Shown here piece by piece: positions 3,689 through 62,578 of a stretch of DNA of 64,000 nt. The translations under genes were made by a program, and so were the position numbers. The notes beneath the pieces are model-generated. The model made no database searches. It was not told the DNA's origin and saw only the letters and a list, made by a program, of their open reading frames with translations. The DNA is from Candidatus Andersenbacteria bacterium RIFCSPHIGHO2_02_FULL_46_16. GTDB taxonomy: Bacteria > Patescibacteriota > Andersenbacteria > UBA10190. The stretch covers positions 18,651-82,650 of the forward strand of contig MHHQ01000005.1 of the NCBI GenBank assembly GCA_001817065.1, given 5' to 3'. Each line of letters starts with the position of its first letter. The first letter of the stretch is position 1.

Positions 3689-3733
3689 TTCTTCGCTCTT
3701 CACTATTGCTTCGAGCTTCGAAGTGCAAGCACT
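3689..3733. repeat. Direct repeat copy 1 (core GCTTCGAGCTTCGAAGTGCAAGCACT)
   Basis: A 26-bp exact core at 3708-3733 (about 45 bp imperfect) recurs at 3971-4015. Copy 1 immediately follows the tRNA-Pro 3' end and is followed by a T-run. Confidence 0.8.
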
Positions 3734-3970
3734 TTTTTTGGAGAGCAAACATTAATTCGGCAGACCAGATACGAAGAAATGCCCTGCGAAGCCCGATGGG
3801 GCGAAGTGTTGGCTAGTCAGGGACAACGCATCTTAATTTGACTTAACTAAGTGAAGATAAAAAACAGCTCATCGTTTTGAAGAACAATTACTTCATTCTC
3901 CAGAGTCCTGCAAAAAATCCTGTCTGCTCTATAGAGGCTAAATTAGATGCGTTGACCCTGGTTGGCTAGT

Positions 3971-4015
3971 GACTTCTCTTTTCGCTTACGCTTCGAGCTT
4001 CGAAGTGCAAGCACT
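3971..4015. repeat. Direct repeat copy 2 (core GCTTCGAGCTTCGAAGTGCAAGCACT)
   Basis: Exact 26-bp copy at 3990-4015. Together with copy 1 it brackets an inverted-repeat-bounded segment about 250 bp long. Confidence 0.8.
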
Positions 4016-4150
4016 GCTTGAAAGCGTGACCCCATCTTTACCCACCGGGATCTAATCTTTGTTTACCTGGTGCATTAAGATGGGAATAAGAAAAAAGGGA
4101 AAGGCAAATCCCCGGCTGGATGCCGGGGATTATTTATTAATGAGAATTGA

Positions 4151-9870: not shown

Positions 9871-10273
9871 GACACAATTGTACTACATAAAATAAAACAT
9901 TTTTCCGGAGGAAATACAAACCAGCACAACAATGTATCTCTGCTTCCTTCGCCGTAGTTAATCCTCCTGTCTGACCTCACTTAAATTCAATTCTGGTATC
10001 CCGCTCCATTCTACACCCTCAGACGAAGAATGGCTCTGCATAGCTTTAGAGCGAAGCATGGGCTGTTCACAAACTTGCGTTCGTTTAACTATGACGGGCT
10101 ACGAAGGGCAAGCCACTTCTTCGGAGCTACGAAGGGCAAGTAATTTCACCCAGCCAAAGGCGGTAGCAGATGGAGCGAGGCTCGATCAGCAGGTCGAGGT
10201 TCCCCCCGAAGTGCGATTTGCCCTGGGCGGCCCGCTCACGTAATAAACAACCCTGACGAAAGTCCAGGGTTAT

Positions 10274-11209: not shown

Positions 11210-11502
11210 TTTTTAACATTATTACAGACACGTTGGGAAATCAAAGTAAACCATTGGGAACAATATTTCCTCTATTTGCTAAAATCAGGCACAAAGAAAG
11301 TCGCCTGCATATTCATAACCGCAGTTCGGACGTCACTTAAGAAGGAGCTCCCTTTTTCGTTCCTCGCTACGCGCGGAGCTTCGAAGAGCAAGCCAATCTT
11401 TAGGTGCAGTAGTTTATCTTCTGTTAAGTTTTAGCGAAGAAATTTTTAGTGGAGAAAAAGTGGCTAGATTAATGTTGCGCAGTCTATTACCTGGTCCTAT
11501 AA

Positions 11503-11844
11503 TTGACGCGTATGAAGCGAAGTAAAACAACGAAAAAACGAGACGAGTACACGGTTGTATTGGAAGATATAAGGGATAACTTCCGTGCTTTTGGCGAAGC
11601 CTTGCAATTAGTAATTGATAAGGTGCAACAAATTGAAGCATTGCAACAAGGAACCGAAAACAAACTGCAGAAAATTGAAGCGTCACAACATGGAACAGAA
11701 ACCAGGCTGGAAAAAATTGAGACGAGCGTTGATGTCATTAAAACAGAAGTGCGTCTGATCCGCCGTGATCAAGTCAGCCGGGATGAATTTGATTTACTAG
11801 AAAAACGGGTGTCGCGAATTGAGAAGAGGATGAGTGTACGGTAG
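11503..11844 (+). CDS. Small coiled-coil protein with internal repeat, hypothetical
   Basis: 113 aa. Heptad-rich, with duplicated 'QQGTENKLQKIEA / SQHGTETRLEKIET'. Divergent from the orphan gene. Confidence 0.45.
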   Translation: MTRMKRSKTTKKRDEYTVVLEDIRDNFRAFGEALQLVIDKVQQIEALQQGTENKLQKIEASQHGTETRLEKIETSVDVIKTEVRLIRRDQVSRDEFDLLEKRVSRIEKRMSVR

Positions 11845-12043: not shown

Positions 12044-12595
12044 ACCTACCCGTATTTTCCAGCCACGACTAAAACCATGCTGCTGATCCACGATCTCGGC
12101 AAAACTTTCTTCTGTCCCCTCAAGAGCAACCGCCTGGTTGACGATAGTGGCGGCATTAGACCATACAACAACGTCAGTGAGCTCAAGTGGTCAGAACATG
12201 AGCTTGAACATGGCAAGTTGGTCAAAGTCAAAGGTTTTCCCGGCTCTTTCAAGCTGATGCTGTTCCGCATCATGGTCTCTACCAACCGGACGGAATACAT
12301 CGTTACCAACAACCTAACTCAAAACTCCCTGGCTGATGCTCAACAAGCGAGCGCCACCAGGTGGAAGATTGAGCAGCTTCATCGCGAGGAGAAACAGCTG
12401 ACCGGTATTGAAAAGTGTCAGGCCAGAATTAACCGCTCTCAGCGTAATCATATTTGCCTGGCAATGTTGGCTTGGAGCGTGCTCACCCAAGCCGCCCACG
12501 CTGCCGGCAAAACCATCTACCAGCAGAAATTGTCGCCGTTGCAACGATTCGTGGTCAATCAGTGGCGGAATCCGGCGACAACATTTGTGTTGTAA
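12044..12595 (+). pseudogene. C-terminal fragment of a DDE transposase (IS701/IS4-like), N-terminally truncated IS remnant
   Basis: 'ATRWKIEQLHREEKQLTGIEKCQARINRSQRNHICLAMLAWSVL' matches the C-terminal catalytic-E signature of IS701/IS4 transposases (RWxIE…K…G…Q.R…H…L.ML). Only about 170 aa are present, and the frame opens abruptly after AT-rich DNA with no N-terminal DDE region. Confidence 0.6.
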
Positions 12596-24100: not shown

Positions 24101-24567
24101 TAAGTCCAATGGCATCTAGGTCACCTTCACCACTAATTAGCCAGTCACCGTCGCCGAGCCCATCTTCTTTGATGTCTCCATCGCCATCTTTGCCCCCCTG
24201 CCCCTCCGCGAGCCCGCAACCTAGTGTCAACCCGTCACCCAATATTAGCCCCTCTCCCTCCTCATTGCCTTTACCATCCACCAGCATCCAATCACCATCT
24301 CCGGAAATTGTTAATCCAATTGTCTGGCATGATATCTGGGTAACTTCGAAGGCAGAATGCTTAGCTAATTTCCAAGGCTGTCATCATTTCAATCCGAGCG
24401 GTAGTTGTGTAGAAGAGCCGTCACCACCGCCACCTCCACCTCCCTCGCCGGAGATTTCTCCCTCATCACCACCTCCCTCGCCGTCAACAAAACAGAGCCC
24501 GCAGCCATCCCCTGTGGTTTCGCCAAAGCTGTGCGTGAACCCCGACGGAACAGTTGTTTATTATTAA
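21145..24567 (+). CDS. Giant secreted surface protein with Myxococcus-type Cys-rich motif and C-terminal Pro/Thr/Ser-rich tandem repeats
   Basis: 1140 aa with a signal peptide. 'CGDGTIDANESCDAAAVPNGCPADSICSLCIC' motif. Duplicated block 'SPSPSPLI(P/T)PTVPIDPTPPI(T/P)PT…'. Poly-Pro C-terminus. Confidence 0.6.
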   Translation: MTIPVWGLLGVFTSTFVAPFVSAVAPIPLALPQTVRYDEYIANQIARAEFSSDPQHLLSIYKTAGQAEGRKGEQGPFITAFIYSGSTCSTIGDEQSYRIVLHNIGNETAQSISVQNLYPEYTSLLRAEPEAEHDSTQRLLTWGGQELASGGTLTFYFSVKTEQAAAGYLDNLTVYYGGGDNGMKVTIGERALSGVCTVTDSIRSFIAGRAAPKPAILCDPAEQGCSSNYQGVGLGPNYRRALQPGNQPTICSLHDKQLRQGQVIPCRDNLPQLGPMFAEAMADILPGECRTLEDNRVVQPGMNDALNRRSKPAAYYMGPLNGVAVYESGNDFKRVVHENSLLGIKNLDGVRDVLMPVHISNWGEFVKIARNVYSGSMDPDAAVADMQGRKATWESNVQSQHSSLNTAYAVVQNARKNNFKSILCGGSNLSDVNTCKLLSNAQSTIRAACCGLEILLQTRADLAKGIIPAIPYDCPKARAFGTGGLETGLPQVYAAYEESLNSSSFPAAQNKSLNDYSLMLDSWESRFVPAIDKYKSGDKEAMVQFINKMQEDQVTVFANSLMKAYREQMLVDINNDNKIRLGIYEDKLNKPKEIATSCAKELPNEYDTPDIRSVELTMCENGTPSQPVVAEVNLREETNEIYSRQPIAPPLITQVQVTIDQRMTFGSSCSGRPGDPWWAADCSCDCGQVVPVSEGSLQFCMAGQGYYTVGGLPPPPGWPRPDYLPPGIPEPYVYNNVPNSLAGWWQAIKYSSRQGLVEFSINRVETKSLSLKKATVLSWIGEKFVQPVMAQVGITSPLSSPPMPPDPPPLDPLETLPAGTCGDGTIDANESCDAAAVPNGCPADSICSLCICTMGAPSVTPVFIPTQGVSPAMSPVSPVPSVSPAASASIQPTITPSPSPLIPPTVPIDPTPPITPTIPPTVTPMVTLEPPSLAPSTEASPASPAPTLSPAVTPTIAISPSPSPLITPTVPIDPTPPIPPTVLPTVSPMASRSPSPLISQSPSPSPSSLMSPSPSLPPCPSASPQPSVNPSPNISPSPSSLPLPSTSIQSPSPEIVNPIVWHDIWVTSKAECLANFQGCHHFNPSGSCVEEPSPPPPPPPSPEISPSSPPPSPSTKQSPQPSPVVSPKLCVNPDGTVVYY

Positions 24568-24626
24568 TTTTTCTGAGGTCACCTTGTTAGTTAAATAATA
24601 TAAGATATAATAATTAAATAATCATT

Positions 24627-25367
24627 ATGAATGAAACAACAGAAGGAAATAACCCGTATCAATCACCGGTAGGAGATCCATTAGACCAGCGTTCGCCGCT
24701 GGGGGAGGAGGTAGAGCGAACGGGTCTTCGAATAGCGGTGGTAGTAGCGGTAGTTATATTAGTACTATTTGGGTTGTATTGGGGTGGTAAATTGCTGTTA
24801 ATGCCAGGAGAAAAGGAGACTCCTGGGGGGCAAGGTGGCGTAGAGGTTTCGGTGGGATCGAAATGCAGTGATCCAACTGTTTATACGGACATTAATGTGG
24901 CATTAAGTAACGCGGGAGCAGTGTGCAAGATAGATTTGAGCGGACAAAATTTACCGTCACTGCCTATTTCGATTGGCTATTTTTCAAACTTAGTAGAACT
25001 AGATGTAAGTAATAATGAAATCTCTTGGCTGCCATCGGAGATAGGGTGGCTACAAAAGTTAGAGAAATTTGATACCAGTAATAATAAACTGCCTTCTTTA
25101 GCGCTAGAAATAGGGTGGCTTCGCAAGTTGAAGGAATGGAATTTATCGAACAACCAACTCACTTGGTTACCAAGTGAAATTGGCTGGTTAGTAGAGATGG
25201 AGAATTTGAACTTGTCTAATAACCAACTTAGTGCTGTTCCAATAGATTTAGGTTGGATGGCTAAGATGCAAAAATTAGATTTGTCTGGCAACCCTCCGGA
25301 AGTGGCAGCGTCTGCCGACAGACTGAGGCCTTATATGGCCGGTGCAAATATTGTTTTACCGCAGTAG
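24627..25367 (+). CDS. Membrane-anchored leucine-rich repeat (LRR) protein
   Basis: Anchor 'VVILVLFGLYWGG', then about 8 LRRs ('LDVSNNEISWLPSEIGWLQKLEKFDTSNNKL…'). Confidence 0.7.
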   Translation: MNETTEGNNPYQSPVGDPLDQRSPLGEEVERTGLRIAVVVAVVILVLFGLYWGGKLLLMPGEKETPGGQGGVEVSVGSKCSDPTVYTDINVALSNAGAVCKIDLSGQNLPSLPISIGYFSNLVELDVSNNEISWLPSEIGWLQKLEKFDTSNNKLPSLALEIGWLRKLKEWNLSNNQLTWLPSEIGWLVEMENLNLSNNQLSAVPIDLGWMAKMQKLDLSGNPPEVAASADRLRPYMAGANIVLPQ

Positions 25368-25382
25368 TTGTAAACCCCCACA

Positions 25383-25408
25383 CCCTAGCCTAAAGGCCAG
25401 GGCTTTTT
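25383..25408 (+). terminator. Rho-independent terminator after the LRR gene
   Basis: CCCTAGCC-TAAA-GGCCAGGG stem-loop followed by CTTTTT. Nested inside a larger inverted repeat, 25375-25385 against 25463-25473. Confidence 0.55.
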
Positions 25409-25613
25409 AGCGGAGCTAATATAAAAACCGTTCATCACCGGCCTTAAAGGCCGGCGCTTCTTGGGTGTGGGGGTAAAATTTGGCTGGCTCAATGTTCAAC
25501 CTGGTGCATGTCAGGCGGTGTTGATTTAGCGATGGCTGGACAGTGAACAGATAGTCTTTGATTGCCATGCGCGATAGATTATACTGGAGCTTATTGATGG
25601 ATAATCTTGTACT

Positions 25614-26498
25614 ATGAATCCGATAAATAAAATGGGGTGGCGAGTAGTGGGGATGACGACAGTGGTTGTATTAGTTATAGCTGGGTTATATTGGGGAGGA
25701 CAGAAATGGCTTAAAGGAGACGGTGATCAAACAACGACACCAGGCGGGTCTTTGTCTTTGGCCGATAAAACGCGAGATAGCGATGGCGATGGGATGGCCG
25801 ATTTGTACGAAACAGCTTTCTATAGTACTAATCCCAATAGTGCTGATACAGACGGTGATGGAACGGGTGATCGGGACGAGGTGGTGGCTGGCCGAGATCC
25901 GCTGATTCCAGGTCCAAACGATGTCAGTAAGCCGGCAACGGGTGAGCAAATCACTCAAGTGGACACCTTTACCAAAAAATATTTGGCATCGTTGCCAGAG
26001 GATGTGCCGCGCGAACAGATTCTGGATCAAGTAAGAATAGAAGCGTTCGTCAATGCGAATAAGGGAGCATTGCTGCCACCGGTCACTATAACTACTTCAT
26101 CGAATGAGGGAAAAGAGGCAGTGCAGGCTTACTTGGATGCCGTATCCAGCACACATAATAAAGAGTTGCGTATTGTTACGAGCGCAGATGTTGAGGCGGC
26201 ATTCCGGCTGCTGATTAATACCCAAGACAAGCAGCCAATGCAGGGGATTGTTGATGTTTTACGAAAGAATGTAGTGATACTGCAAAAAGTCACAGCACCG
26301 AACGAGGTAGCAGGCTTGCACGAAAAGATGATCGCAGCGACAACCGCGCTCCAAATCAACAGCGAGGGATTACTTAATATTGACCAGGATTTTGTCGGCG
26401 GTTTGATTGCGGCGAAAAAAATCGAGGAACTAGGTGGGGTGTTTCAGGAGATGGCGACATCGGTTAAGGAATTGGAGACTAAGTATGGATTGGAATAA
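25614..26498 (+). CDS. N-terminally membrane-anchored protein with TSP3-like Ca-binding repeats (paralog of 20143..21135)
   Basis: Anchor 'VVLVIAGLYWGG', then 'DSDGDGMADLYE…DTDGDGTGDRDE'. Same architecture as the 20143 gene. Confidence 0.55.
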   Translation: MNPINKMGWRVVGMTTVVVLVIAGLYWGGQKWLKGDGDQTTTPGGSLSLADKTRDSDGDGMADLYETAFYSTNPNSADTDGDGTGDRDEVVAGRDPLIPGPNDVSKPATGEQITQVDTFTKKYLASLPEDVPREQILDQVRIEAFVNANKGALLPPVTITTSSNEGKEAVQAYLDAVSSTHNKELRIVTSADVEAAFRLLINTQDKQPMQGIVDVLRKNVVILQKVTAPNEVAGLHEKMIAATTALQINSEGLLNIDQDFVGGLIAAKKIEELGGVFQEMATSVKELETKYGLE

Positions 26499-26590
26499 AC
26501 GAAACATGCATAAAACACAGGGGACGAAACATGCACAAAGCACAGAACACAAAACCCAAACAAAGCACAAAACTAACAGACCAAACAAAT
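26499..26590 (+). repeat. A+C-rich strand-biased intergenic repeat (family core CACAAAGC(C/A)CAAACAAA(A/G)CACA)
   Basis: 'gaaacatgcacaaagcacagaacacaaaacccaaacaaagcacaaaac'. The plus strand is almost devoid of G and T. Same family as 30798-31075, 32013-32180 and 33240-33300. Confidence 0.75.
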
Positions 26591-26620
26591 ATACCGGTAA
26601 TTTTTAAGGAAGAATGGAAA

Positions 26621-28360
26621 ATGGAAATAAGGAAACAAGAAAAAGAATATCGGAAAAAACTAAGCGTCGGGGCGCTAGTTTTGGGTTTAGTGGCTTTAAG
26701 CATGACGGCGGACGTACGTGATGCCTGGGCCGATCCGCATGGGATATTTTATACAGCAATCGGGCAACAACAATTGTTTTTTAACGTGTTAGCGGCACTG
26801 GATCAGGCCGACTATGTGGAAACAGCCTTTGATCGAGAAGCGCGCCGAAAAGCCCGGGAAGCAGTATCTGCCGAGCAGCCTTTTGCCAAAGAGACTGAGT
26901 CGGGCGGACGCTTTACAAAAGAAACAGAGGTGGCCAGCGATAGCGGATACTTAACACAGCCCGGCACACCGACATTGCTTAACCGAGCAGTGACTTTGGA
27001 TGGAGCAGACCTGTACACTGATCAGCTAGTGCGGGAATTCGGGGCGGAATCGGCGAGGCGTAACGCGGCAGCGGAGCTGCTGCAGACACTGTGCGCATAT
27101 GGGTTTGGTATTAAGGAATGTGATAATGAAATTAAACCAGGGCTAACACCTGAGCAGAGACAGGCCGAGGTCTTGGCTATGGAGCAGCGCCGGCGTGAAG
27201 CAGTAGTGGTAGATCCGTTGGAGTGGCAAGCTATGCCTGTTTTAAATGGTGTTTTAGCCGCATTGAATTCGGGAACAGAGGAGGATGAGACTGAACGAGC
27301 TTTAAGATGGGTATTTCAGATTAATGAACCATATGCTTTTTCAAACGAAGTGGCGTTATGGCGTCAGCAAATAAACCAACTACCCGAGTTGGAAAGACCA
27401 GCGCATCTGGCAACGCTGCAAGGGATGATTGATGAAGTGGCAACGCAATATATGCCAGATAAATCAGTGTCTTGGCCGTTTTTAGAAATTAAAACCGAGG
27501 CGGACGGAAGTGGCTCTTATAGACATCTTATATGGAACCCTATTAGCGCTTCTGATTGTTGGCCTAATAATAGGCGCACTGTCCCTTGTTTGGAATACAA
27601 CTACGGCGAAGCATTGTCTCAGGCTGGTTTGCCCACAGACGTAGCGTCTTATGTGAAAAGAGTTAATGATGCCATTTTTAGCGATTCGTCAAGACTAAGC
27701 AATGTAGCTTCAGAAGCATTTAAAAGAGTGGAATATCAACAAGGTTTGATAGAAAATGAGGGTTTGTTGGCGGACGCGAACCTAAAAAGCAATCCACCTC
27801 CTTCTCCGTCGCCGGACGTAACGCCGTTATCAAGTTACGGGGAATTATCGTTGCTGATTAATAATCCGGTAGCAGCGCGGAAAGCTAGCGTTTATGGCAT
27901 ACCAAACGTACTGGGGCAACTAGCGACCAGCCAGCAAGCCAGTTCGTTAACAGGCTTGGATAATCCGGGAGGCGTGCAATTAGTGAAAAGAAGCGGCAGC
28001 AGCGGTACGCCGGGGAGCGGAGAGCCGGAATGCAGTAATGGAGTAAATGACGACGGTGATAATTATATTGATTACCCGCTGGATCCGGAATGTGCTAGTG
28101 CAACCGACACTTCAGAAAGCCAGTCGGGACCGCAAGCCGCGGCGAGCAACACCGGCCCGCAGGTGGCTGGAGCGCTGGATTTATTATTTAAGCCCAGTGA
28201 GAATTTCTTTGATAAAGATAAGGATCCGACCTCTCCGTCGGCTAATATAATTTCACCAATACTGGAGTTTGGCGCACGCCATGCCTTGCGGGTAATGACC
28301 GCTGGCAAGTGGCGGCCGGGGACAACTGCTGGTGTTACGTGCGGATTTACGTGTGATTAA
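26621..28360 (+). CDS. Secreted protein with a Cys/Asp-rich 'ECSNGVNDDGDNYIDYPLDPEC' motif, hypothetical
   Basis: The track ORF starts at 26531 inside the CA-rich repeat. The probable true start is ATG 26621, preceded by AAGGAAG, followed by a signal peptide 'LSVGALVLGLVALSMTA'. Confidence 0.55.
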   Translation: MEIRKQEKEYRKKLSVGALVLGLVALSMTADVRDAWADPHGIFYTAIGQQQLFFNVLAALDQADYVETAFDREARRKAREAVSAEQPFAKETESGGRFTKETEVASDSGYLTQPGTPTLLNRAVTLDGADLYTDQLVREFGAESARRNAAAELLQTLCAYGFGIKECDNEIKPGLTPEQRQAEVLAMEQRRREAVVVDPLEWQAMPVLNGVLAALNSGTEEDETERALRWVFQINEPYAFSNEVALWRQQINQLPELERPAHLATLQGMIDEVATQYMPDKSVSWPFLEIKTEADGSGSYRHLIWNPISASDCWPNNRRTVPCLEYNYGEALSQAGLPTDVASYVKRVNDAIFSDSSRLSNVASEAFKRVEYQQGLIENEGLLADANLKSNPPPSPSPDVTPLSSYGELSLLINNPVAARKASVYGIPNVLGQLATSQQASSLTGLDNPGGVQLVKRSGSSGTPGSGEPECSNGVNDDGDNYIDYPLDPECASATDTSESQSGPQAAASNTGPQVAGALDLLFKPSENFFDKDKDPTSPSANIISPILEFGARHALRVMTAGKWRPGTTAGVTCGFTCD

Positions 28361-30297
28361 TGATTATGAGGATTATTAGAAACAATATTGCTCTACCCCC
28401 ATACCAGACAATTTCATCAGTCAGGGCAGTGATGGGTGATGGGCTCTTTCATTCCTATAAGAAAGCCTCGTTTTTTAGCCTGTGGTATGGTGGTTTAATT
28501 GTTTTGATACTGGTTTGTTTGGTTGGTTTAAGACCAGCGTTAGCGCAGGAATTAGCACCGGTTGATCTTGATGTGCCTAGGTTGGCGCATGAGACGCAGA
28601 GTGAGCTTATTGCTCTGGGTTGCGAAGAAGTGGATCTTACAAACAAACAGGCTTTGCTAGCGGCCAGAGCGCAGAGCTGGCAACTAATAATACCGGTTGA
28701 TGCTAATGGGAATAGCATGACGTTCTGTTCTATACAGGCAGTAGAAAAATTGCAGCCGTTGAGAGGAGGACAAGTTAAACAAGCCGCGACTGGTTGGCGT
28801 GAAGTATTAGGAAGAATTGGTCTTTTTGGTTTTGATGCCACTTCTTTTCTTCTAACGGGCTCGATTGGTTGGCTTTTTACTTTAGGTGCTCAAATAGGTG
28901 GTTCCGTGTTTAGTTACACTATTTTGCTTTTAACACCGTTGTTTCTTGTTTCTGAGCATATAACAAACAGTACTGTGAGAAGCCTCTGGCCGATAGTTCT
29001 GGGCATAGTTAATCTTGGATTTATGTTAGCTTTGGTTTTTATTGCACTGACAACAGTCTTACGGTTAGAGGTTGGCGGTGGAGTAAGGCGGTCACTGCCA
29101 CGCTTGTTGCTAGCAGCGCTGTTAGTAAATTTTAGTTTAGTGATAGCCGGCGTAGTAATTGATTTTACACGATTGTTAATAAGGGTCTTGGCGGTTGTTT
29201 TCTCGGTGCCTGATCTTACTAGTGACTTGCCTGGTCTTTTAGAGCCAGCTGGTAATTTCGGTCCCATATATGAGGCATTGAAAACCGTGGGGCCGACGTG
29301 GTCATCATCAACTAATGCTCTTAGGGCTTTTATTGGTATGTTAATTGTCTGGATGGTGGCTAGCTCGGGGTTGGTGCTTTTGTTCAATTTGGCAATGCGG
29401 TACATAATGTTGCTTGGTTTGTTGATAGTTTCCCCGTTCGCCTATTTGTTTGTGGCTCTGCCAAATACAGCTAAATTGGCTGGTTTATGGTGGTCATCGT
29501 TTTTTAAATATGTTTTTTATGCGCCAGCAGCACTGTTGATATTGCTGCTAGTTGGGAAGATGAGTCAGATGTCTCTCCCCGGAATCACCGATGGGGTTGC
29601 AAGTGGTTTGGTAAGTGTAATGTTTTTGACCGTCGGTTTTATCGCGGCAGCTCGTGCCGGTAAGTATGCGGGCATTGCGGGATCAGCGGCGATGATTAGT
29701 TTTGCACAAAAAACGGGGCAAAAAGGGAGAAATTTGATGTATAGGGGAGCAAGGGGAATGGGTAGGGGATACATGGCAGCCACAGGGGCTCGAGCTGCCA
29801 CTAAGTATGCTGGTGCGCAGATTGGTTTATTTGGCCGGACGGCCGGTAAAAACCTGTTGTCTTACATTCCTGGTGCGGGCAAAGCAGCAAAGACAAAGGG
29901 TGGCCCGATGGCCGATCGCTTGTTACCAAGTAAAGGTGAACGACAAGCTCGGGCTGCGGCAGTTACGGCGGCCAGGGCTGGTAATTATAATGACCCGTCT
30001 TTGGGATCATCTAGATTGGCAAACAGCGTTGTTGGCGCTCATTTAGCTAGGCAGGCAGGACCTCAGCTTGCAAATATGGGCGCAGTGGGTACCGCAAGCC
30101 AAATTAATGCGGCAGTTAAGAATAAAGAATTAGTTAGAAATTTGGACGATACACAAAGGGCTAATTTAGAAGCTCAAATATTAGTTAATACGTCTTTCAG
30201 TGTTGCCCCAGAAGAAAATGAGAAAGTACGGCAGAGGTTGATCAATGAGTTGAATAACACAATAAGAGACGTTGAATCAAAAGACTATAAAGCCTAA
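28360..30297 (+). CDS. Polytopic membrane protein, VirB6/TrbL-like (putative T4SS channel component)
   Basis: 645 aa, at least 8 TM segments, then a Gly/Ala/Arg-rich hydrophilic tail. Start ATG overlaps the upstream stop (TAATG). Assignment is by architecture and context only. Confidence 0.4.
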   Translation: MIMRIIRNNIALPPYQTISSVRAVMGDGLFHSYKKASFFSLWYGGLIVLILVCLVGLRPALAQELAPVDLDVPRLAHETQSELIALGCEEVDLTNKQALLAARAQSWQLIIPVDANGNSMTFCSIQAVEKLQPLRGGQVKQAATGWREVLGRIGLFGFDATSFLLTGSIGWLFTLGAQIGGSVFSYTILLLTPLFLVSEHITNSTVRSLWPIVLGIVNLGFMLALVFIALTTVLRLEVGGGVRRSLPRLLLAALLVNFSLVIAGVVIDFTRLLIRVLAVVFSVPDLTSDLPGLLEPAGNFGPIYEALKTVGPTWSSSTNALRAFIGMLIVWMVASSGLVLLFNLAMRYIMLLGLLIVSPFAYLFVALPNTAKLAGLWWSSFFKYVFYAPAALLILLLVGKMSQMSLPGITDGVASGLVSVMFLTVGFIAAARAGKYAGIAGSAAMISFAQKTGQKGRNLMYRGARGMGRGYMAATGARAATKYAGAQIGLFGRTAGKNLLSYIPGAGKAAKTKGGPMADRLLPSKGERQARAAAVTAARAGNYNDPSLGSSRLANSVVGAHLARQAGPQLANMGAVGTASQINAAVKNKELVRNLDDTQRANLEAQILVNTSFSVAPEENEKVRQRLINELNNTIRDVESKDYKA

Positions 30298-30299
30298 TC

Positions 30300-30797
30300 T
30301 TGTGCAGATTGTTTAATATGGGTCTTGATTATAATAGTATACCGTCGGGATCGGTGGTAACCGTGTCGCAAGCCGAAGGAGAGCAATATGTGGCGGGATT
30401 GTTTGAATTGCCCCAGATAGCTCGACAAGCCATGGTGTCGACGCGAACAGGGGCGTTTGTGAGAGGCCTGACTAAGGCTTATGGGCTGGAACAGATTAAA
30501 GCGCCGATAATTGCATTGTCAATATTAAAAACAGGGATTGGCAAGATACCGCTTAGTGGGTTGGGGGCTTATTTATCTGGCCAACTAAGGCTTCCTAACG
30601 ATAAAGCGCAAAGGATGGCGCGCGAGATAGAACAAGATTTATTTGAACCAGTTCGGCAGGAGCTGGAGGCGCATTGGGCGAAGCAGAAAAAAGAGGAACC
30701 GGGAAGGCAAGCACAGACGAAAGCGACAGAAGGAGGAGCAAGGAATGTGCTGAATCTTAAGATGGACAAAGCTCCGCCTAAGCCACCGTGGAGATAG
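30300..30797 (+). CDS. Hypothetical protein of the T4SS-like cluster
   Basis: 165 aa, no motif. An alternative start lies at 30318. Confidence 0.4.
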   Translation: MCRLFNMGLDYNSIPSGSVVTVSQAEGEQYVAGLFELPQIARQAMVSTRTGAFVRGLTKAYGLEQIKAPIIALSILKTGIGKIPLSGLGAYLSGQLRLPNDKAQRMAREIEQDLFEPVRQELEAHWAKQKKEEPGRQAQTKATEGGARNVLNLKMDKAPPKPPWR

Positions 30798-31075
30798 TAC
30801 ACAAAACATTCACAAAACACAGTGCACAAAGCCCAAACAAAACACAAAAGACAAACTGATACAAACACGACGCACTTATCCTACCGTTACGGTTGAGAAG
30901 GGGAATGAAACATTCACAAAACACAGTGCACAAAGCCCAAACAAAACACAAAAGACAAACTGATACAAACACGACGCACTTATACTGCTATTACTTTTGA
31001 GAGTAAGGGCGAAACATTCCCAAAACATAGTACACAAAGCCCAAACAAAACACAGTACACAAACACGAATAAACA
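30798..31075 (+). repeat. Tandem array (about 2.7 copies, 104-bp period) of the A+C-rich repeat
   Basis: Unit 'cattcacaaaacacagtgcacaaagcccaaacaaaacacaaaagacaaactgatacaaacacgacgcacttat…' starts at 30807, 30911 and 31015. Copies 1 and 2 are nearly identical; copy 3 is diverged. Confidence 0.85.
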
Positions 31076-31102
31076 GCGCGGACAGACTCTAAATGAGATT
31101 TA

Positions 31103-31483
31103 ATGACACGACATACAAGTCCATATCGTGATCTGGAGGAACGAACATTATTGTTTGCCAAAGAGGTATTAAGAATGTGTCAGTCTTTACCTAAAAGTAC
31201 TATTAATAATAGGTTGATTGATCAACTGATTAGATCGGCCGGGTCAGTAGGGGCGAATTACCGAGAGGCAAACGACGCTATAAGCAAGAAGGATTTTGTT
31301 CATCGTTTACGTATTGCACGAAAGGAAGCAAAGGAAACGAGCTATTGGCTTGATTTGTTACGGGAGGTTAATGTGGAACTGGTGGATAAAATTTCAGTAT
31401 TACAACAAGAGGCAATAGAGCTGAGAAATATCTTGTCTGCTATAATTCAGAAATGTGAGGTTAAGTCCCGTGAACGTGTTTGA
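31103..31483 (+). CDS. Four-helix-bundle protein (TIGR02436 family, '23S rRNA intervening-sequence protein'-like)
   Basis: 126 aa. 'SAGSVGANYREA…KDFVHRLRIARKEAKETSYWLDL' matches the family signature. Confidence 0.65.
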   Translation: MTRHTSPYRDLEERTLLFAKEVLRMCQSLPKSTINNRLIDQLIRSAGSVGANYREANDAISKKDFVHRLRIARKEAKETSYWLDLLREVNVELVDKISVLQQEAIELRNILSAIIQKCEVKSRERV

Positions 31484-31545
31484 TAGGTTTGTAATATTGG
31501 ATTTTGTTTGGGCTTTGTGTTTTGAGTTTTTATATAGTTTATAAT

Positions 31546-31992
31546 ATGCGATTTCAAGTTCCCCAATTCGTCGACATTGAAGATCGGATTATTGGTCCGC
31601 TGACGCTAAAGCAATTTGCTTTTTATCTGATTGCGGCCATGATCATTGGCATTTTATATGTCATGGTAAGTTTAGGCGTGCTGATCGTGTTGGCATTGCC
31701 GATTGCGGGGACAGCTTTGCTGTTTGCTCATGCGAGGTTTTATGGGCAGCCGTTCGGTCAGGTGCTGATTAATGGCATTAGCTATGCTATGGGGTCGAAG
31801 TTGTATTTATGGCGAAGAACTGACAAGGATAACAAGATAAAAATCAGCGGGTCGGAGTTTAGCGATGAAGCGGAAGTATATGGGGTTTCATCTATTGACT
31901 TGATGAGCCAAACTTTAAACACAGAAGGAAATGTCGTGGGAGCAGATTTAGAGGACCCGTTGCTCGAAGAACCGGAGGGGAGCAAGGATTGA
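31546..31992 (+). CDS. PrgI-family protein (VirB3-like T4SS component)
   Basis: 'MRFQVPQFVDIEDRIIGPLTLKQFAFYL' matches the PrgI N-terminal signature, followed by two TM segments. The track ORF starts at TTG 31504. ATG 31546 is directly abutted by TATAAT. Confidence 0.6.
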   Translation: MRFQVPQFVDIEDRIIGPLTLKQFAFYLIAAMIIGILYVMVSLGVLIVLALPIAGTALLFAHARFYGQPFGQVLINGISYAMGSKLYLWRRTDKDNKIKISGSEFSDEAEVYGVSSIDLMSQTLNTEGNVVGADLEDPLLEEPEGSKD

Positions 31993-32012
31993 TTTTATAC
32001 AAAGGGCAGGTT

Positions 32013-32180
32013 AGAAACATTCCCAAAGCACAGTGCACAAAACCCAAACAAAACACAACAACCTAAACCTTACAAACAATCGACGAAACTTATCCAAAAC
32101 ACAGTCTTTGCAAACTTAACAAACCATAACAAAGCGGTGACAAAATTTTACGAACAACGATAAAAACAGATAAAAACACA
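32013..32180 (+). repeat. A+C-rich strand-biased intergenic repeat copy
   Basis: 'gaaacattcccaaagcacagtgcacaaaacccaaacaaaacacaaca…cgacgaaacttatccaaaacacag…'. Confidence 0.75.
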
Positions 32181-32188
32181 GGGTATGG

Positions 32189-32350
32189 AAGTCACATTAT
32201 GAAATGCCACAAATATAGTGACGGGCCCTGTCGGCGCTGCACCCCCACCCGACGGCTTCGGTCTGCCAGGCGGGCAGCCTGCAGGCGCTCGGTGGGGGTC
32301 CCCCGCGCCGCCACCCGTTTATTTAAGAGTGGCATTTCATAATGTGACAT
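32189..32350. repeat. Palindromic element: perfect 20-bp inverted repeats flanking a 118-bp GC-rich core
   Basis: GTCACATTATGAAATGCCAC at 32191-32210 and its exact reverse complement at 32329-32348. The core is about 75% GC and internally self-complementary (GCGCtgcaCCCCCACC / GGTGGGGGtcccccGCGC). Confidence 0.75.
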
Positions 32351-32507
32351 CTATACAAACTTAATTCCAAAATATCCTCTTAAGGACCAATGAATGAACG
32401 AGATGGGGACCGTGGGAAGGAAAGGGAAGAAGTAGAAATACGGAGAAGGGGAGGCTTGCAACAAAAAGAATAGAAAGGGGCAGGGCGATAAGGTAAACTA
32501 TTAAGTG

Positions 32508-33239
32508 ATGTTAGAGAAGGACCAAAAAGGCAAATCCAGTCAGGAACTAGTGCAGATTACGGCGGTACGCGACGGAGTGGTGGTATTGGGGAATAATACC
32601 TTGCGGGCGACTTTGATCGTGTCTTCATTAAACTTCGCCTTAAAGTCTGAAGAGGAGCAAGATGCAATAATTTATGCCTTTCAAGGTTTTCTAAACTCAC
32701 TGGATTTCCCGGTACAGATTTTAGTGATGTCGAGAAAGCTGGATATTACATCCTATTTAGAGGAGCTGGATTCTCGTAAAGAACGGCAAAAAAATGAACT
32801 GCTGCGCTTGCAGATGGCCGAATATATTAATTTTATTTCAGAATTGGTCAAGGGTGGTAATATTATGACCAAGACTTTTTTTGTCTCCGTTTCGTTTGCG
32901 ATGGCGCAGAGCCGACAGTTGAACACGTTGGAAAAACTGGCCAAGACATGGCAAGGCATTGGAAAAGGCAATAAGCCATTTACTGACGTAGAGTTTGAGC
33001 ATTACAAGAAGCAATTAATGCAACGGGTGGAGCAAGTAGCTGTTGGTTTAAGAGGAGTGGGTTTACGTGTGGCACCGCTACAGACGCAAGAAGTGCTGGA
33101 ATTGTTTTACAGCATCCTAAATCCTGTTACGTCACGCAATTTACGTTTGCACAATGTAGCCAAACTGAGCGTAGAGGAAACCGGGGCACCAGACTTAGTG
33201 TCTAGCAACAGATCAGAGCAGCCGTGGGTGAGCAGGTAG
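32508..33239 (+). CDS. VirB4/TrbE-family N-terminal domain (CagE_TrbE_VirB-like), a separate ORF
   Basis: 'ITAVRDGVVVLGNNTLRATLIVSSLNFALKSEEEQDAIIYAFQGFLNSLDFPVQILVMSRKLD' resembles the conserved N-terminal region of VirB4 ATPases. No Walker motifs. The ORF ends at TAG 33237-33239. Confidence 0.5.
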   Translation: MLEKDQKGKSSQELVQITAVRDGVVVLGNNTLRATLIVSSLNFALKSEEEQDAIIYAFQGFLNSLDFPVQILVMSRKLDITSYLEELDSRKERQKNELLRLQMAEYINFISELVKGGNIMTKTFFVSVSFAMAQSRQLNTLEKLAKTWQGIGKGNKPFTDVEFEHYKKQLMQRVEQVAVGLRGVGLRVAPLQTQEVLELFYSILNPVTSRNLRLHNVAKLSVEETGAPDLVSSNRSEQPWVSR

Positions 33240-33300
33240 AGTACAAAACGTAGACAAAGCACAGACAGGCACAAAGTCCAAACAAAGCACAAGCCGTACA
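33240..33300 (+). repeat. A+C-rich strand-biased repeat copy, located between the two VirB4 pieces
   Basis: 'gtacaaaacgtagacaaagcacagacaggcacaaagtccaaacaaagcacaagccgtaca'. Confidence 0.7.
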
Positions 33301-33468
33301 TGTTTTATAAACTGCCATTAATCGGTAAAACCGTACAAACGGGATAGATTAGGCATTAGAAAATAGAAATATAGTAACCAGTAATCCGTAACTTGAAAAT
33401 GAGAATAAATAGGGTAGAGAGGGATGTTTATGGCTCGCTAGGGCTGGTTTTAATATATCTGTTATACT

Positions 33469-35298
33469 GTGGATATGCTGGGATTTAAAATTAAGAGGCA
33501 AACTAAGCAACAAAAGAAACCCGAGAAAGCCTTGCCTGAAGACCAGGCTAAGTTAAAGCAATGGCAGGAGGGAGTGGTGCGTTTGAAGGACATTCTAGCC
33601 CCAGCGGCTTTTTCAGTGTCCACTAAATATGTTGAGATAGACGGCAAGTTTGCCACGACGTTATTTGTGACGGCTTATCCGCGCTATCTGGAAACTAATT
33701 GGCTGTCACCAATAGTGAATTTTGATGTGGAGTTCGATATGGGGATGTTCGTTTATCCACAAGACTCCGCCACGATTTTAAGGCAATTGAAAAAACAGAT
33801 CACCCAAGTGTCCGCTTCGATAATCATGCGGACGGAGAAAGGTAAAGTGAGGGATCCACAGTTAGAAACTGCCTACCGAGACATTGAAGAACTGCGGGAC
33901 AGACTGGTGCAGGGAACGGAACGATTTTTTCAATTAAGTTTGTATCTGACGCTATATGCCGACAGTCAAGAAGAGTTAGAGGAAACTGTCGGACAGATTG
34001 AAGTGTTGTTAGAAGGCCGCCTGGTCTATATTAAGCCGGCTATATTCCAAATGAAGGAAGGATTCTTTTCGACCATTCCGCTGGGGCAGGACAAGCTGGC
34101 GAGAACTACCAACATGAGCTCATCGTCGCTATCAACAACCTTCCCTTTCGTGAGCTCCGACCTTTCTAGCAGTAATGGAATTTTGTTCGGTATTAATTTG
34201 CACAACAACAGCTTAATATTGTTTGATCGATTTAGTTTGGGCAATGCTAATATGGTGATCTTCGCTAAGTCTGGCGCGGGTAAATCGTACGCGGTTAAAC
34301 TTGAGATATTGCGGCAATTGATGTTTGATACGGAAGTGATTGTAATTGATCCGGAAAAGGAATACCGTTATTTGTCTGACTCGGTGGGCGGGGCTTATCT
34401 GCGGATAGCCACAGCGTCCGACCACAGGATCAACCCATTTGATTTGCCGGAGTTGGGAGAGGAAGACGAGCCAGAAACGGTGCTGCGGGAGAATATAACT
34501 CGTTTAATTGGTTTGGTTTCGCTGATGGCCGGGGGGTTTTCGCCAGAGGAAAACTCGGTGGTAGATAAGGCTTTGTGGGAAACATATGCGCTGAAAGATA
34601 TTACTAAAGGCATTAGATGGACAAAGCCTGAGGTGCCGACTTTGCAGGATTTTTATAATATTGTTGGCGACATGGAAGGCGGCGCTAATATTGCCTTGCG
34701 GATTGAGCGGTTTGTGGAAGGGACTTTTGCTGGGGTTTTTAACCGACCAACCAACATCGACTTGGATAATCAACTAGTAGTGTTCAATGTGCGTGATATG
34801 GAGGAGGAGCTGCGGCCGCTAGCTATGTATGTCGTCTTGGGGTTCATTTGGAACAAAGTACGTAGCTCGTTAAAGAAAAGAATACTGGTAGTGGACGAGG
34901 CGTGGGTGATGATGCAACACGAGGAGTCGGCTAAGTTTATGTTCTCCATCGCAAAACGGGCACGCAAATATTACTTAGGTGTAACGACGATTACGCAGGA
35001 TATACAGGATTTTCTGGATTCTAAGTACGGTAAACCGATTGTCACAAACTCTTCTTTGCAGCTGCTACTGCGCCAGTCGCCAGCGGCGATCGATTTGTTG
35101 GCGGATGTGTTTTATCTGACCGACCACGAGAAGTTTAGATTATTGGAAAGTGATGTGGGAGAAGGTATTTTATTTGCCGGGCTGAAACATGTAGCGATTA
35201 AAGTAGTGGCCAGTTATGCGGAGGACCAGGTAATAACCAGCGATCCACAGCAGGTGCTGGCGATTGAGGCGGCGAAGAGAGAGATGGCGGCTAATTGA
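33469..35298 (+). CDS. virB4: VirB4/TraE-family type IV secretion ATPase (C-terminal two-thirds)
   Basis: Walker A 'FAKSGAGKSY', Walker B 'ILVVDEAWVMM', 'YYLGVTTITQDIQDF'. N-terminal region 'YVEIDGKFATTLFVTAYPRYL' is VirB4-like. Track start is GTG 33469; first ATG at 33475. Confidence 0.8.
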   Translation: MDMLGFKIKRQTKQQKKPEKALPEDQAKLKQWQEGVVRLKDILAPAAFSVSTKYVEIDGKFATTLFVTAYPRYLETNWLSPIVNFDVEFDMGMFVYPQDSATILRQLKKQITQVSASIIMRTEKGKVRDPQLETAYRDIEELRDRLVQGTERFFQLSLYLTLYADSQEELEETVGQIEVLLEGRLVYIKPAIFQMKEGFFSTIPLGQDKLARTTNMSSSSLSTTFPFVSSDLSSSNGILFGINLHNNSLILFDRFSLGNANMVIFAKSGAGKSYAVKLEILRQLMFDTEVIVIDPEKEYRYLSDSVGGAYLRIATASDHRINPFDLPELGEEDEPETVLRENITRLIGLVSLMAGGFSPEENSVVDKALWETYALKDITKGIRWTKPEVPTLQDFYNIVGDMEGGANIALRIERFVEGTFAGVFNRPTNIDLDNQLVVFNVRDMEEELRPLAMYVVLGFIWNKVRSSLKKRILVVDEAWVMMQHEESAKFMFSIAKRARKYYLGVTTITQDIQDFLDSKYGKPIVTNSSLQLLLRQSPAAIDLLADVFYLTDHEKFRLLESDVGEGILFAGLKHVAIKVVASYAEDQVITSDPQQVLAIEAAKREMAAN

Positions 35299-41915: not shown

Positions 41916-41933
41916 TGCTAAATATTATAACAG

Positions 41934-42116
41934 CCTAAGTCACCGTAAATAAATAACTTAACCATCTCTCGCCCACTATGCACCAATCTGCGACTTTTTT
42001 TCAATCGCGAAACATTCAACGTAGTACTGCGCTTCGTATTTCGCTCAATCGAAAAAGTCGTATCTCGGCGCAGATTGAACGAGATCTGGCCAAGTTATTT
42101 ATTTACGGCGCCTAAG
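41934..42116. mobile_element. MITE-like element copy A: about 25-bp terminal inverted repeats, 183 bp, non-coding
   Basis: Left end CCTAAGTCACCGTAAATAAATAACTT, right end AAGTTATTTATTTACGGCGCCTAAG, an imperfect reverse complement. Internal sequence is shared with copy B at 59347-59618. Confidence 0.55.
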
Positions 42117-59213: not shown

Positions 59214-59346
59214 AGAGATTTAGCACAACAACTTATCCCAAAGGATCCTTTTAGGGCAAACAATAATGATTCGGCTAAAAACTTAACTAACCCACGGCGA
59301 GTTACTAGGAAGCAAGAGGAGGGTCTTGTTTTTTGACTCTGGGTGA

Positions 59347-59618
59347 GCTAAGTCACCGTCTCAAAATAACTTAACCGTCTCTCGCCCACTATGCAATCTA
59401 CGACTTTTTCTCCAGCCTTCGCCAAGGCTACGGCCGGCAGGTAATCGCGAAACACTTACCGTAGTACTGCGCTTCGTATTTCGCTCCAGCTGTCGCTACC
59501 ACCTTCGCTAAAGCTACGGTGGTCAAGAAAGCTATGGCCGGCAGGCAATCGAAAAAGCTGTATCTCGGCGCAGATTGAACGAGAGATCTGACCAAGTTAT
59601 TTATTTACGGTGCATAAG
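59347..59618. mobile_element. MITE-like element copy B (272 bp; two internal duplications of about 35 and 75 bp relative to copy A)
   Basis: Ends GCTAAGTCACCGTCTCAAAATAACTT … AAGTTATTTATTTACGGTGCATAAG. Shares 'ctctcgcccactatgca', 'gtagtactgcgcttcgtatttcgctc' and 'gtatctcggcgcagattgaacgag' with copy A. Confidence 0.55.
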
Positions 59619-59670
59619 TCGTATTGAATGTTTGTTTTTGGAAGTTTGGTAAGCTAGTGTTTAAAAAGGT

Positions 59671-62261: not shown

Positions 62262-62578
62262 CTAGGCAAACAATTTACAAACCGAGAACAAATTTTCCAA
62301 ACCATAACAAATTGGTAACAAACTTTACAAACAAACTTATTCCAACGGGACCCCTTTGGGGCAAACCATAACGAACCCCAAGCTTGCTAGTGTAATTTAC
62401 GGTCAATTTAAAAACGGTAACAAGCAAGCAAAAAAAGTGAGAGTTTTGTGTCTAGGCTTGGTCAGGGATAAAAAGTAATAGCGCATTGATTGTTTTGGGG
62501 TATCTTTATGATTGATGTCGTTAAATGGTTTAGGAATTAGCGGCATTTTTAGTTATATTGATTGAACTGAAGTAAATT

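Follow-up and report, generated by a model that had tools for sequence, protein, structure and literature searches.

A+C-rich intergenic repeats in an Andersenbacteria genome are probably arms of a palindromic element that resembles rRNA intervening sequences

A family of A+C-rich repeats between the genes of a type IV secretion system (T4SS)-like cluster was characterized in Candidatus Andersenbacteria bacterium RIFCSPHIGHO2_02_FULL_46_16, using a 64,000-nucleotide stretch of contig MHHQ01000005.1 (positions 18,651 to 82,650 of the forward strand; hereafter, the window). The repeats are probably the arms of a palindromic selfish element of the rRNA intervening-sequence (IVS) type that is widespread in the candidate phyla radiation (CPR)/Patescibacteria, the window holding one complete cassette together with decayed solo arms. 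A complete element would consist of an A+C-rich 5′ arm, a loop or an open reading frame (ORF), and a G+T-rich 3′ arm, and would occur either as an ORF-less hairpin of 110–170 nt or as a cassette carrying a gene for the PF05635 intervening-sequence protein (IVP). Because its 5′ arm is A+C-rich and its 3′ arm G+T-rich, such an element reads A+C-first on both DNA strands. The set in the window would comprise the cassette at 31006–31546, two extra 104-bp units, solo arms beginning at 26499, 32009 and 33240, and a fragment of the inner block of long arms at 62262.

The cassette is built like an intervening sequence that carries an ORF, with a 5′ arm, an IVP ORF and a 3′ arm in that order. The encoded protein matches Pfam family PF05635 (E 6.8e-21), TIGR02436 (E 1.3e-26) and PDB entry 2RLD (E 2e-14), and the 3′ arm stops just before the probable prgI start, ATG 31547. 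Inverted repeats found by a repeat search make ~31022–31075, in the third unit of a tandem array, complementary to 31484–31535, and unit 3 pairs with this segment across the IVP ORF in both the minimum free energy (MFE) and the centroid folds. The inverted copy (31484–31546) and the IVP gene (31103–31483) had both been overlooked in the initial annotation of the window, which was made from the letters alone. Its description of the repeat RNA as unstructured holds for the solo copies and fails for the third tandem unit. The IVP is under purifying selection, with a dN/dS of 0.11 between the window and L104 (L-numbers are labels of loci fetched from other genomes and metagenomes), and is conserved better than the neighbouring 165-aa host gene.

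The arm copies stand out from the rest of the window. Their core, CACAAARYCCAAACAAARCACA, had seven matches at three mismatches or fewer, compared with 0.00 expected, all of them at 26.5–33.3 kb. Six were on the plus strand, at 26548, 30825, 30929, 31033, 32036 and 33270, and one was on the minus strand (31498–31519) within an inverted copy at 31497–31530; an nhmmer arm profile returned the same seven copies. The strand bias originally described is thus true of six copies and not of the seventh. The mean A+C content of the window was 47% in 50-nt windows (standard deviation 9.6%), and on the plus strand 84% or more was reached only at 26522–26600, 30796–30876, 30904–30980, 31012–31075 and 32012–32092. 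The A+C-rich segments contain 76–83% A+C, 5–14% T and 8–18% G. As the initial annotation had stated, they follow the stop codons at 26498, 30797, 31992 and 33239, beginning 0–21 nt downstream; these are not, however, the ends of five consecutive genes, as the junctions at 28360 and 30297 have neither a spacer nor a repeat. A second annotated motif, ACTTATCC, was confirmed by six exact matches in the window, compared with 1.9 expected, three of the six lying in arm tails.

The solo arms lack the partner that the cassette has. The arm at 26499–26600, with a short internal duplication of 25 nt (26501–26550), immediately follows the stop codon of the TSP3-repeat gene (25614–26498) and lies upstream of ATG 26621, and no G+T partner was present in the sequence read downstream. 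The duplex energy of the partnerless long arm (32009–32180) with downstream sequence was only −21 kcal/mol; its layout of core and inner block also occurs in L065 and L069. The arm at 33240–33310 lies in the spacer between the TraC-like gene (32505–33239) and the VirB4-type ATPase gene (33469–35298). Having no partner, these arms cannot fold. Weaker copies had been annotated after 59213 and 62261. Neither gave a match to the arm profile, and the segment at 59214–59245 is marginal; that at 62262–62345 is A+C-rich and, although it has no core, contains a match to the pattern AAACCATAACAAANNGGTRACAAA (62299–62322) that it shares with the long arm (32121–32144).

The 104-bp tandem array that had been annotated was recovered by Tandem Repeats Finder (TRF), which gave a period of 104 bp at 30804–31054 with 2.4 copies, 89% matches and a score of 391. 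A repeat search of the array region (30798–31100) resolved three units at spacings of exactly 104 and 104 bp, with identities of 100, 88 and 66%. The 35-nt tails of units 1 and 2 contain ACTTATCC or ACTTATAC. These two units are additional copies that precede the 5′ arm belonging to the cassette itself, and the 104-bp array is a local amplification. CRISPR was rejected, in agreement with the initial annotation: the 104-bp units abut without spacers, and the other copies lie 1–4 kb apart.

Table 1. Coordinates of arm copies, cassette parts and the ATPase box (window positions unless a locus is named).
Feature	Start	End	Strand	Details
Solo A+C arm	26499	26600	+	Core 26548; nhmmer 26530–26584, E 4e-8
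Tandem units 1 and 2	30798	31005	+	Each 104 bp, A+C arm plus 35-nt tail
Tandem unit 3 (cassette 5′ arm)	31006	31102	+	Unit closest to the L104 5′ arm
IVP gene	31103	31483	+	126-aa four-helix-bundle protein, PF05635/TIGR02436, '23S rRNA intervening-sequence protein'
Cassette 3′ arm	31484	31546	+	Reverse complement of core; 78% G+T, 2% C
Long solo arm	32009	32180	+	Core 32036–32057; ACTTATCC 32088; inner block AAACCATAACAAAGCGGTGACAAA 32121–32144
Solo arm	33240	33310	+	Core 33270; nhmmer 33251–33308
A+C-rich segment after stop 62261	62262	62345	+	Inner block of long arms only
TGnTATACT box	33455	33471
TGnTATACT box, L044	8660	8680
TGnTATACT box, L045	11400	11420
TGnTATACT box, L047	10795	10816

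The same core occurs widely outside the window. Exact matches to CACAAARYCCAAACAAARCACA were found in 43 stretches of GTDB representative genomes and in 68 metagenome stretches (111 loci), and a scan of viral contigs gave none. Judged by record title, the genome matches are almost all from CPR bacteria (Moranbacteria, Taylorbacteria, Kaiserbacteria, Campbellbacteria, Saccharibacteria and Parcubacteria). Some core-bearing metagenome-assembled genomes among third-party annotation records are titled 'Bdellovibrionales', and a single match in Parachlamydiales looks like chance. The arms share a design in which the blocks AAAACACAG, core and CAAAACACAAAC are followed by a short loop and then by the G+T-rich complement, and the typical hairpin of A+C arm, loop and G+T arm is 110–170 nt long. 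A total of 116 non-redundant arms was classified: 63 belong to compact hairpins as their 5′ halves, the pairing of 11 spans 270–840 nt, 30 are solo, without a partner, and 12 lie at contig edges. Their median duplex energy was −37.7 kcal/mol with downstream sequence, as compared with −19.4 kcal/mol with the upstream control. Among the roles suggested in the initial annotation, that of a small mobile or structural RNA family comes nearest, the repeats belonging to a widespread family of palindromic elements. The reverse complement of a hairpin is again A+C-first, so that strand is informative for solo arms alone. Outside the window, solo arms are found in both orientations with respect to the genes beside them. 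A crude ORF-based tally of the spacers that hold elements gave nine convergent, seven co-directional and three divergent, and the elements appear to favour gene 3′ ends and convergent spacers.

IVP genes lie between arms in the window and in L104, L022/L075, L021/L077 and L011/L094, the L104 protein having 78% amino acid identity to that of the window; in L095 and L066 an IVP gene lies beside an arm at a contig end. The IVP genes of L012, L078, L084 and L070 are bracketed by inverted repeats of other low-complexity sequences. Three cyanobacterial plasmids (L117, L118 and L119) carry TIGR02436 four-helix-bundle genes bracketed by inverted heptamer arrays (TAATTCG/AATTACG, AAAGTAA/TTACTTT, and GATTTAC with AATCCCC), with insertion sites between cas2 and cas1, between drmD and the gene for an MmeI-type enzyme, and beside a helicase gene. 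These three cases, for which there is no control, suggest that the gene-in-hairpin design is general.

Intervening sequences of rRNA with an S23p/23S_rRNA_IVP ORF are known from Leptospira and Coxiella, and ORF-less ones from Salmonella; the classical sites are helices H9, H25 or H45 of 23S rRNA. The cassette resembles them in its terminal inverted repeats, which form a long stem that the solo arms cannot form, and in the optional PF05635 ORF in the loop. Relatives of the window arms, moreover, lie inside 16S and 23S rRNA helices. In Parcubacteria GW2011_GWC2_48_17 (LCPL01000023; L018 and L025), core hairpins interrupt both rRNA genes, as insertions of 252 nt near position 990 of the Rfam bacterial large-subunit (LSU) model and of 161 nt near small-subunit (SSU) position 188. 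Two further insertions, at LSU position 1218 (RF02541) and SSU position ~80, are more divergent hairpins; all four are A+C-first/G+U-second, and two of the four carry the core. From its position, we take LSU 1218 to lie at about helix 45, a classical IVS site.

The window copies differ from IVSs in lying in the spacers of protein genes, in the A+C versus G+T asymmetry of their arms and in existing also as solo and tandem arms. There is no rRNA gene in the window, and since its copies sit between protein-coding genes rather than inside rRNA they are IVS-like and not IVSs. An Rfam scan of 40 genome loci placed only two in rRNA, both from LCPL01000023, and at least 38 of the 40 between protein-coding genes. 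At the gathering and E ≤ 1 thresholds, no Rfam family matched the arms, the hairpins or a G+C-rich hairpin next to the long arm.

Many short, ORF-less, uncharacterised insertions have been described at classical IVS sites in CPR rRNA, together with 23S_rRNA_IVP ORFs in CPR 16S and 23S insertions, and the short insertions are probably of the IVS type (Tsurumaki et al., 2024; PMC11270868). The text of that paper uses neither 'hairpin' nor 'inverted repeat', and no mention of copies outside rRNA was found in it. Our incomplete coverage of the literature, which is no proof of novelty, yielded no description of CPR hairpins outside rRNA, of CPR palindromic repeats or MITEs (miniature inverted-repeat transposable elements), or of inverted repeats around four-helix-bundle genes. 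IVSs are selfish elements with inverted repeats at their borders; RNase III excises them, and no religation follows. Where IVSs and the S23p/IVP ORF come from, how they move and what they do have been open questions since the 1990s (PMC4990558, for both statements).

By analogy with classical IVSs, the transcript of the cassette would fold into a stem of ~45 bp made of A-U, C-G and G-U pairs, which RNase III would cut. A cut of this kind would part the upstream cistrons from those beginning with prgI and free the message for IVP. In the simplest view, the solo arms would be largely inert products of decay or recombination. The elements might spread by IVP-assisted movement, through a trans-acting enzyme or by ectopic recombination.

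Several observations weigh against a palindromic IVS-type element. An alignment of 39 hairpins was scored against a hand-specified core helix of 22 pairs. In this alignment 83.8% of cells paired, as compared with 33–55% when the partner columns were slid; shuffles reached the same 83.8%, and compensatory changes were no commoner than in shuffles. Core position 8 was usually unpaired, and positions 7 and 18 varied independently between the arms. RNAalifold, run on a MAFFT alignment of the same hairpins, found only six pairs, because the loop lengths differ. Both arms are conserved as sequence, and the pairing reflects that conservation and not demonstrated selection for structure. The hairpins folded about equally well on either strand, the rRNA copies slightly better in antisense, and a test of G·U against A·C strand asymmetry revealed no consistent strand preference. 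Median copy similarity was 0.69 within genomes and 0.66 between them; with within-genome copies no more alike, a recent burst of transposition is unlikely. Neither a transposase nor a target-site duplication was identified, no search aimed at the latter having been made. Finally, every solo copy in the window is A+C in the sense orientation; with n = 3–5 this lacks significance and could be chance or a hint of selection.

A bolder reading, which we regard as doubtful, is that IVP genes and strand-asymmetric arms constitute an unrecognised class of mobile cassette in rRNA helices, operon spacers and ORFs, comparable to REPIN–RAYT but built on another protein, with IVP recognizing the arms to mobilize or maintain them. 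If this were true, the classical rRNA IVSs would be the rRNA-resident subset of a larger family that spans the CPR and, with different arm sequences, the cyanobacteria, and CACAAAGCCCAAACAAAACACA would be the arm sequence expected to be bound by IVP.

It is unlikely that the arms are ordinary MITEs of a transposase-encoding insertion sequence (IS), mobilized in trans, with the IVP gene either carried along as a passenger or hit as an insertion target unrelated to them. In favour are the length of the terminal inverted repeats, the location between genes, the presence/absence polymorphism and the existence of both ORF-less and ORF-bearing forms, together with a weak DDE transposase fragment in the window at 12077–12595. 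One refuting condition of the initial annotation, that the copies be ends of a known IS or MITE, applies in part, since they are the ends of an inverted-repeat element. The only cargo that recurs between the inverted arms, however, is IVP, and none of the loci has a transposase there; the elements reside in rRNA helices, as IVSs do; and copies within a genome are not more similar. The fragment at 12077–12595 is a 172-aa ORF with a weak DDE_Tnp_1 match (E 5e-5), is probably part of an IS and does not adjoin any arm.

The copies behave like dispersed palindromic repeats (REPIN/RAYT, Correia, ERIC and Rickettsia palindromic elements, RPE) and have none of the defining features of those families. 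From what is generally known of them, REP/REPIN–RAYT, Correia/NEMIS, ERIC and BIME repeats also exist as dispersed intergenic hairpin doublets with decaying singlets, and REPIN–RAYT systems also have one protein gene bracketed by inverted copies. The bracketed gene encodes a Y1 (HUH) transposase there and a four-helix bundle here, where no GTAG-type tag is present. Unlike a REP, a single A+C arm is not itself a palindrome and, having almost no G or T, cannot pair with itself. RPE are palindromic repeats tolerated in frame inside housekeeping ORFs, as the present core can be; the sequences are unrelated, the hosts belong to a different phylum, and the copies found in frame here consist of short solo cores and not of entire palindromes.

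Such in-frame cores were found on other CPR contigs within SecA, KsgA/RsmA, Fmt, a MiaB-like radical-SAM enzyme and an LTD protein (L034, L116, L101, L055 and L071), mostly translated as QNPNKTQ. An A+C-only sequence has no T and a G+T-only sequence has no A, so that neither can encode a stop codon. Hairpins contained 3.7 stops per 100 nt on both strands, as compared with 13.4 in composition-matched shuffles, and had 2.6 of six frames open per hairpin, as compared with 0.25. The in-frame cores are consistent with this stop depletion, and stop-free arms can thus be tolerated as peptide insertions. In the window, a mechanically called ORF (26531–28360) starts inside the A+C arm because that arm is stop-free; the true start is probably ATG 26621, after AAGGAAG, in agreement with ortholog lengths of 581–587 aa.

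The window is chromosomal, carrying dnaA-dnaN-recF, yidC, genes of the ruvA/B/C region and the gene for IF-2. The arm-bearing cluster is T4SS-like and encodes a TSP3-repeat protein, two large unknown proteins, a 165-aa protein, PrgI, a TraC-like N-domain protein, a VirB4-type ATPase and a pilin. The comparison of orthologous loci proposed in the initial annotation was carried out, and arms proved to be present in some loci and absent from others. L047/L048, whose TraC-like protein is 71% similar to that of the window, has spacers of 3–76 nt and no arm. L045/L046 (TraC-like protein 77%) has a weak solo arm after the TSP3 gene, at the same site as 26499, and an IVP cassette with arms of another subtype at the same site between the 165-aa gene and prgI. 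L104 has the same cassette as the window with a single 5′ arm, while L085 (~88% at the nucleotide level) has a 104-nt unit in the prgI–traC spacer that is 96.7% identical to window unit 2. In L044 (TraC-like protein 87%) a run of N lies exactly at the TSP3 site (L044 2629–2727). The spacer between the TraC-like and ATPase genes, occupied by an arm in the window, is 76–81 nt long in the orthologs and has no arm. Since orthologous T4SS operons exist without arms, the arms are dispensable, polymorphic insertions, and they appear to move or recombine between neighbouring spacers.

We consider it quite improbable that the sense A+C tracts are functional mRNA elements, either rut sites for Rho loading, C-rich and poor in G, or CA-rich enhancers of translation of the next cistron, even though the solo copies in the window are all sense, G-poor, predicted to be unstructured and placed just past stop codons. 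They are absent from the orthologous operons with short spacers, and outside the window this sequence forms a hairpin arm or an rRNA insertion, or runs antisense to its neighbours. The downstream genes have signals of their own, AAGGAAG before ATG 26621 and TGnTATACT before the ATPase ATG. Consensus promoter and terminator scans over 26–34 kb gave no enrichment, and the solo arms carry neither. The arm-free operons, together with the solo arms that elsewhere lie in either orientation, argue against the CA-rich leader or S1-binding enhancer that had been proposed. An extended −10-like box, TGnTATACT, lies 6–9 nt before the ATPase start in four of four orthologs (Table 1) and suggests a leaderless transcript that starts inside the operon.

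One copy had also been thought to sit at a break in VirB4. VirB4 is encoded by two genes (32505–35298), one for a 244-aa TraC-like N-domain protein (PF26593) and one for a 609-aa ATPase, and a split or disrupted gene was rejected: the two-gene boundary is conserved in every orthologous locus examined (L044, L045/L046 and L047/L048), and the N-terminal part is a stand-alone protein of 218–262 aa in 120 of the 120 homologues listed, that is, in at least 120. The split is therefore a trait of the lineage and not the mark of a pseudogene. A metagenome contig, L073, is 100% identical to window 24382–27114 (2733 nt); its last 366 nt have no megablast match in the window and represent strain variation or else a chimeric assembly within the 579-aa gene.

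Low-complexity drift or replication slippage within the operon is very improbable as the origin of the repeats and is refuted as a sole explanation by an exact 22-nt core common to 111 loci from many CPR lineages, although the 104-bp array and the 25-nt duplication do show local slippage or unequal crossing-over. A diversity-generating retroelement, whose template and variable repeats would be the copies seen here and whose Avd-like accessory protein would be IVP, has a negligible chance of being the explanation: the repeats are adenine-rich and IVP shares the four-helix-bundle superfamily of Avd, yet no reverse transcriptase domain was found in the window ORFs scanned (64 kb), the copies are non-coding and differ at sites other than adenines, and there is no template/variable repeat logic, so that this explanation is effectively refuted for the window.

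Other repeats lie near the arms or elsewhere in the window. A G+C-rich hairpin of 174 nt (32183–32356), with 43-nt arms, an MFE of −102.8 kcal/mol and z = −9.7 relative to shuffles, directly follows the long A+C arm and has no Rfam match. The end of contig L065 carries a copy of its first 72 nt at 98.6% identity, which makes it another repeated element. An element of ~195 nt with ~37-nt terminal inverted repeats (CTAAGTCACCGTAAATAAATAACTT...) occurs at 41920–42116 and at 59348–59633, the second copy being interrupted by extra G+C-rich inserts; with relatives both in L063 and in the spacer that separates prgI from traC in L045/L046, it looks like a separate MITE-like family found in spacers of the same sort. 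Near the tRNA-Pro and tRNA-Gly genes, GAGCTTCGAAGTGCAAGCACT and its variants form a family of short repeats at 3691–4023, 10096–10147 and 11376–11404, and a 42-nt tandem repeat at 11624–11720 has 2.3 copies. Repeats appear to break short-read assemblies, as at the N-run of L044 in the spacer between the TSP3 gene and the next gene, and in L065, which ends inside the G+C-rich hairpin.

For annotation, the arms matter in that they lengthen ORF calls, as at 26531, and can make conserved gene boundaries look like gene disruptions. As 'selfish repeats' they would be ordinary. The same hairpin family, with its 22-nt core across CPR lineages, is, however, also found between and inside ordinary genes, and IVP genes travel in such hairpins outside rRNA. 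A long-unexplained element and its protein family would thereby be tied to a tractable genomic pattern, and IVSs would shift from a curiosity of rRNA to a dispersed element family open to comparative genomics.

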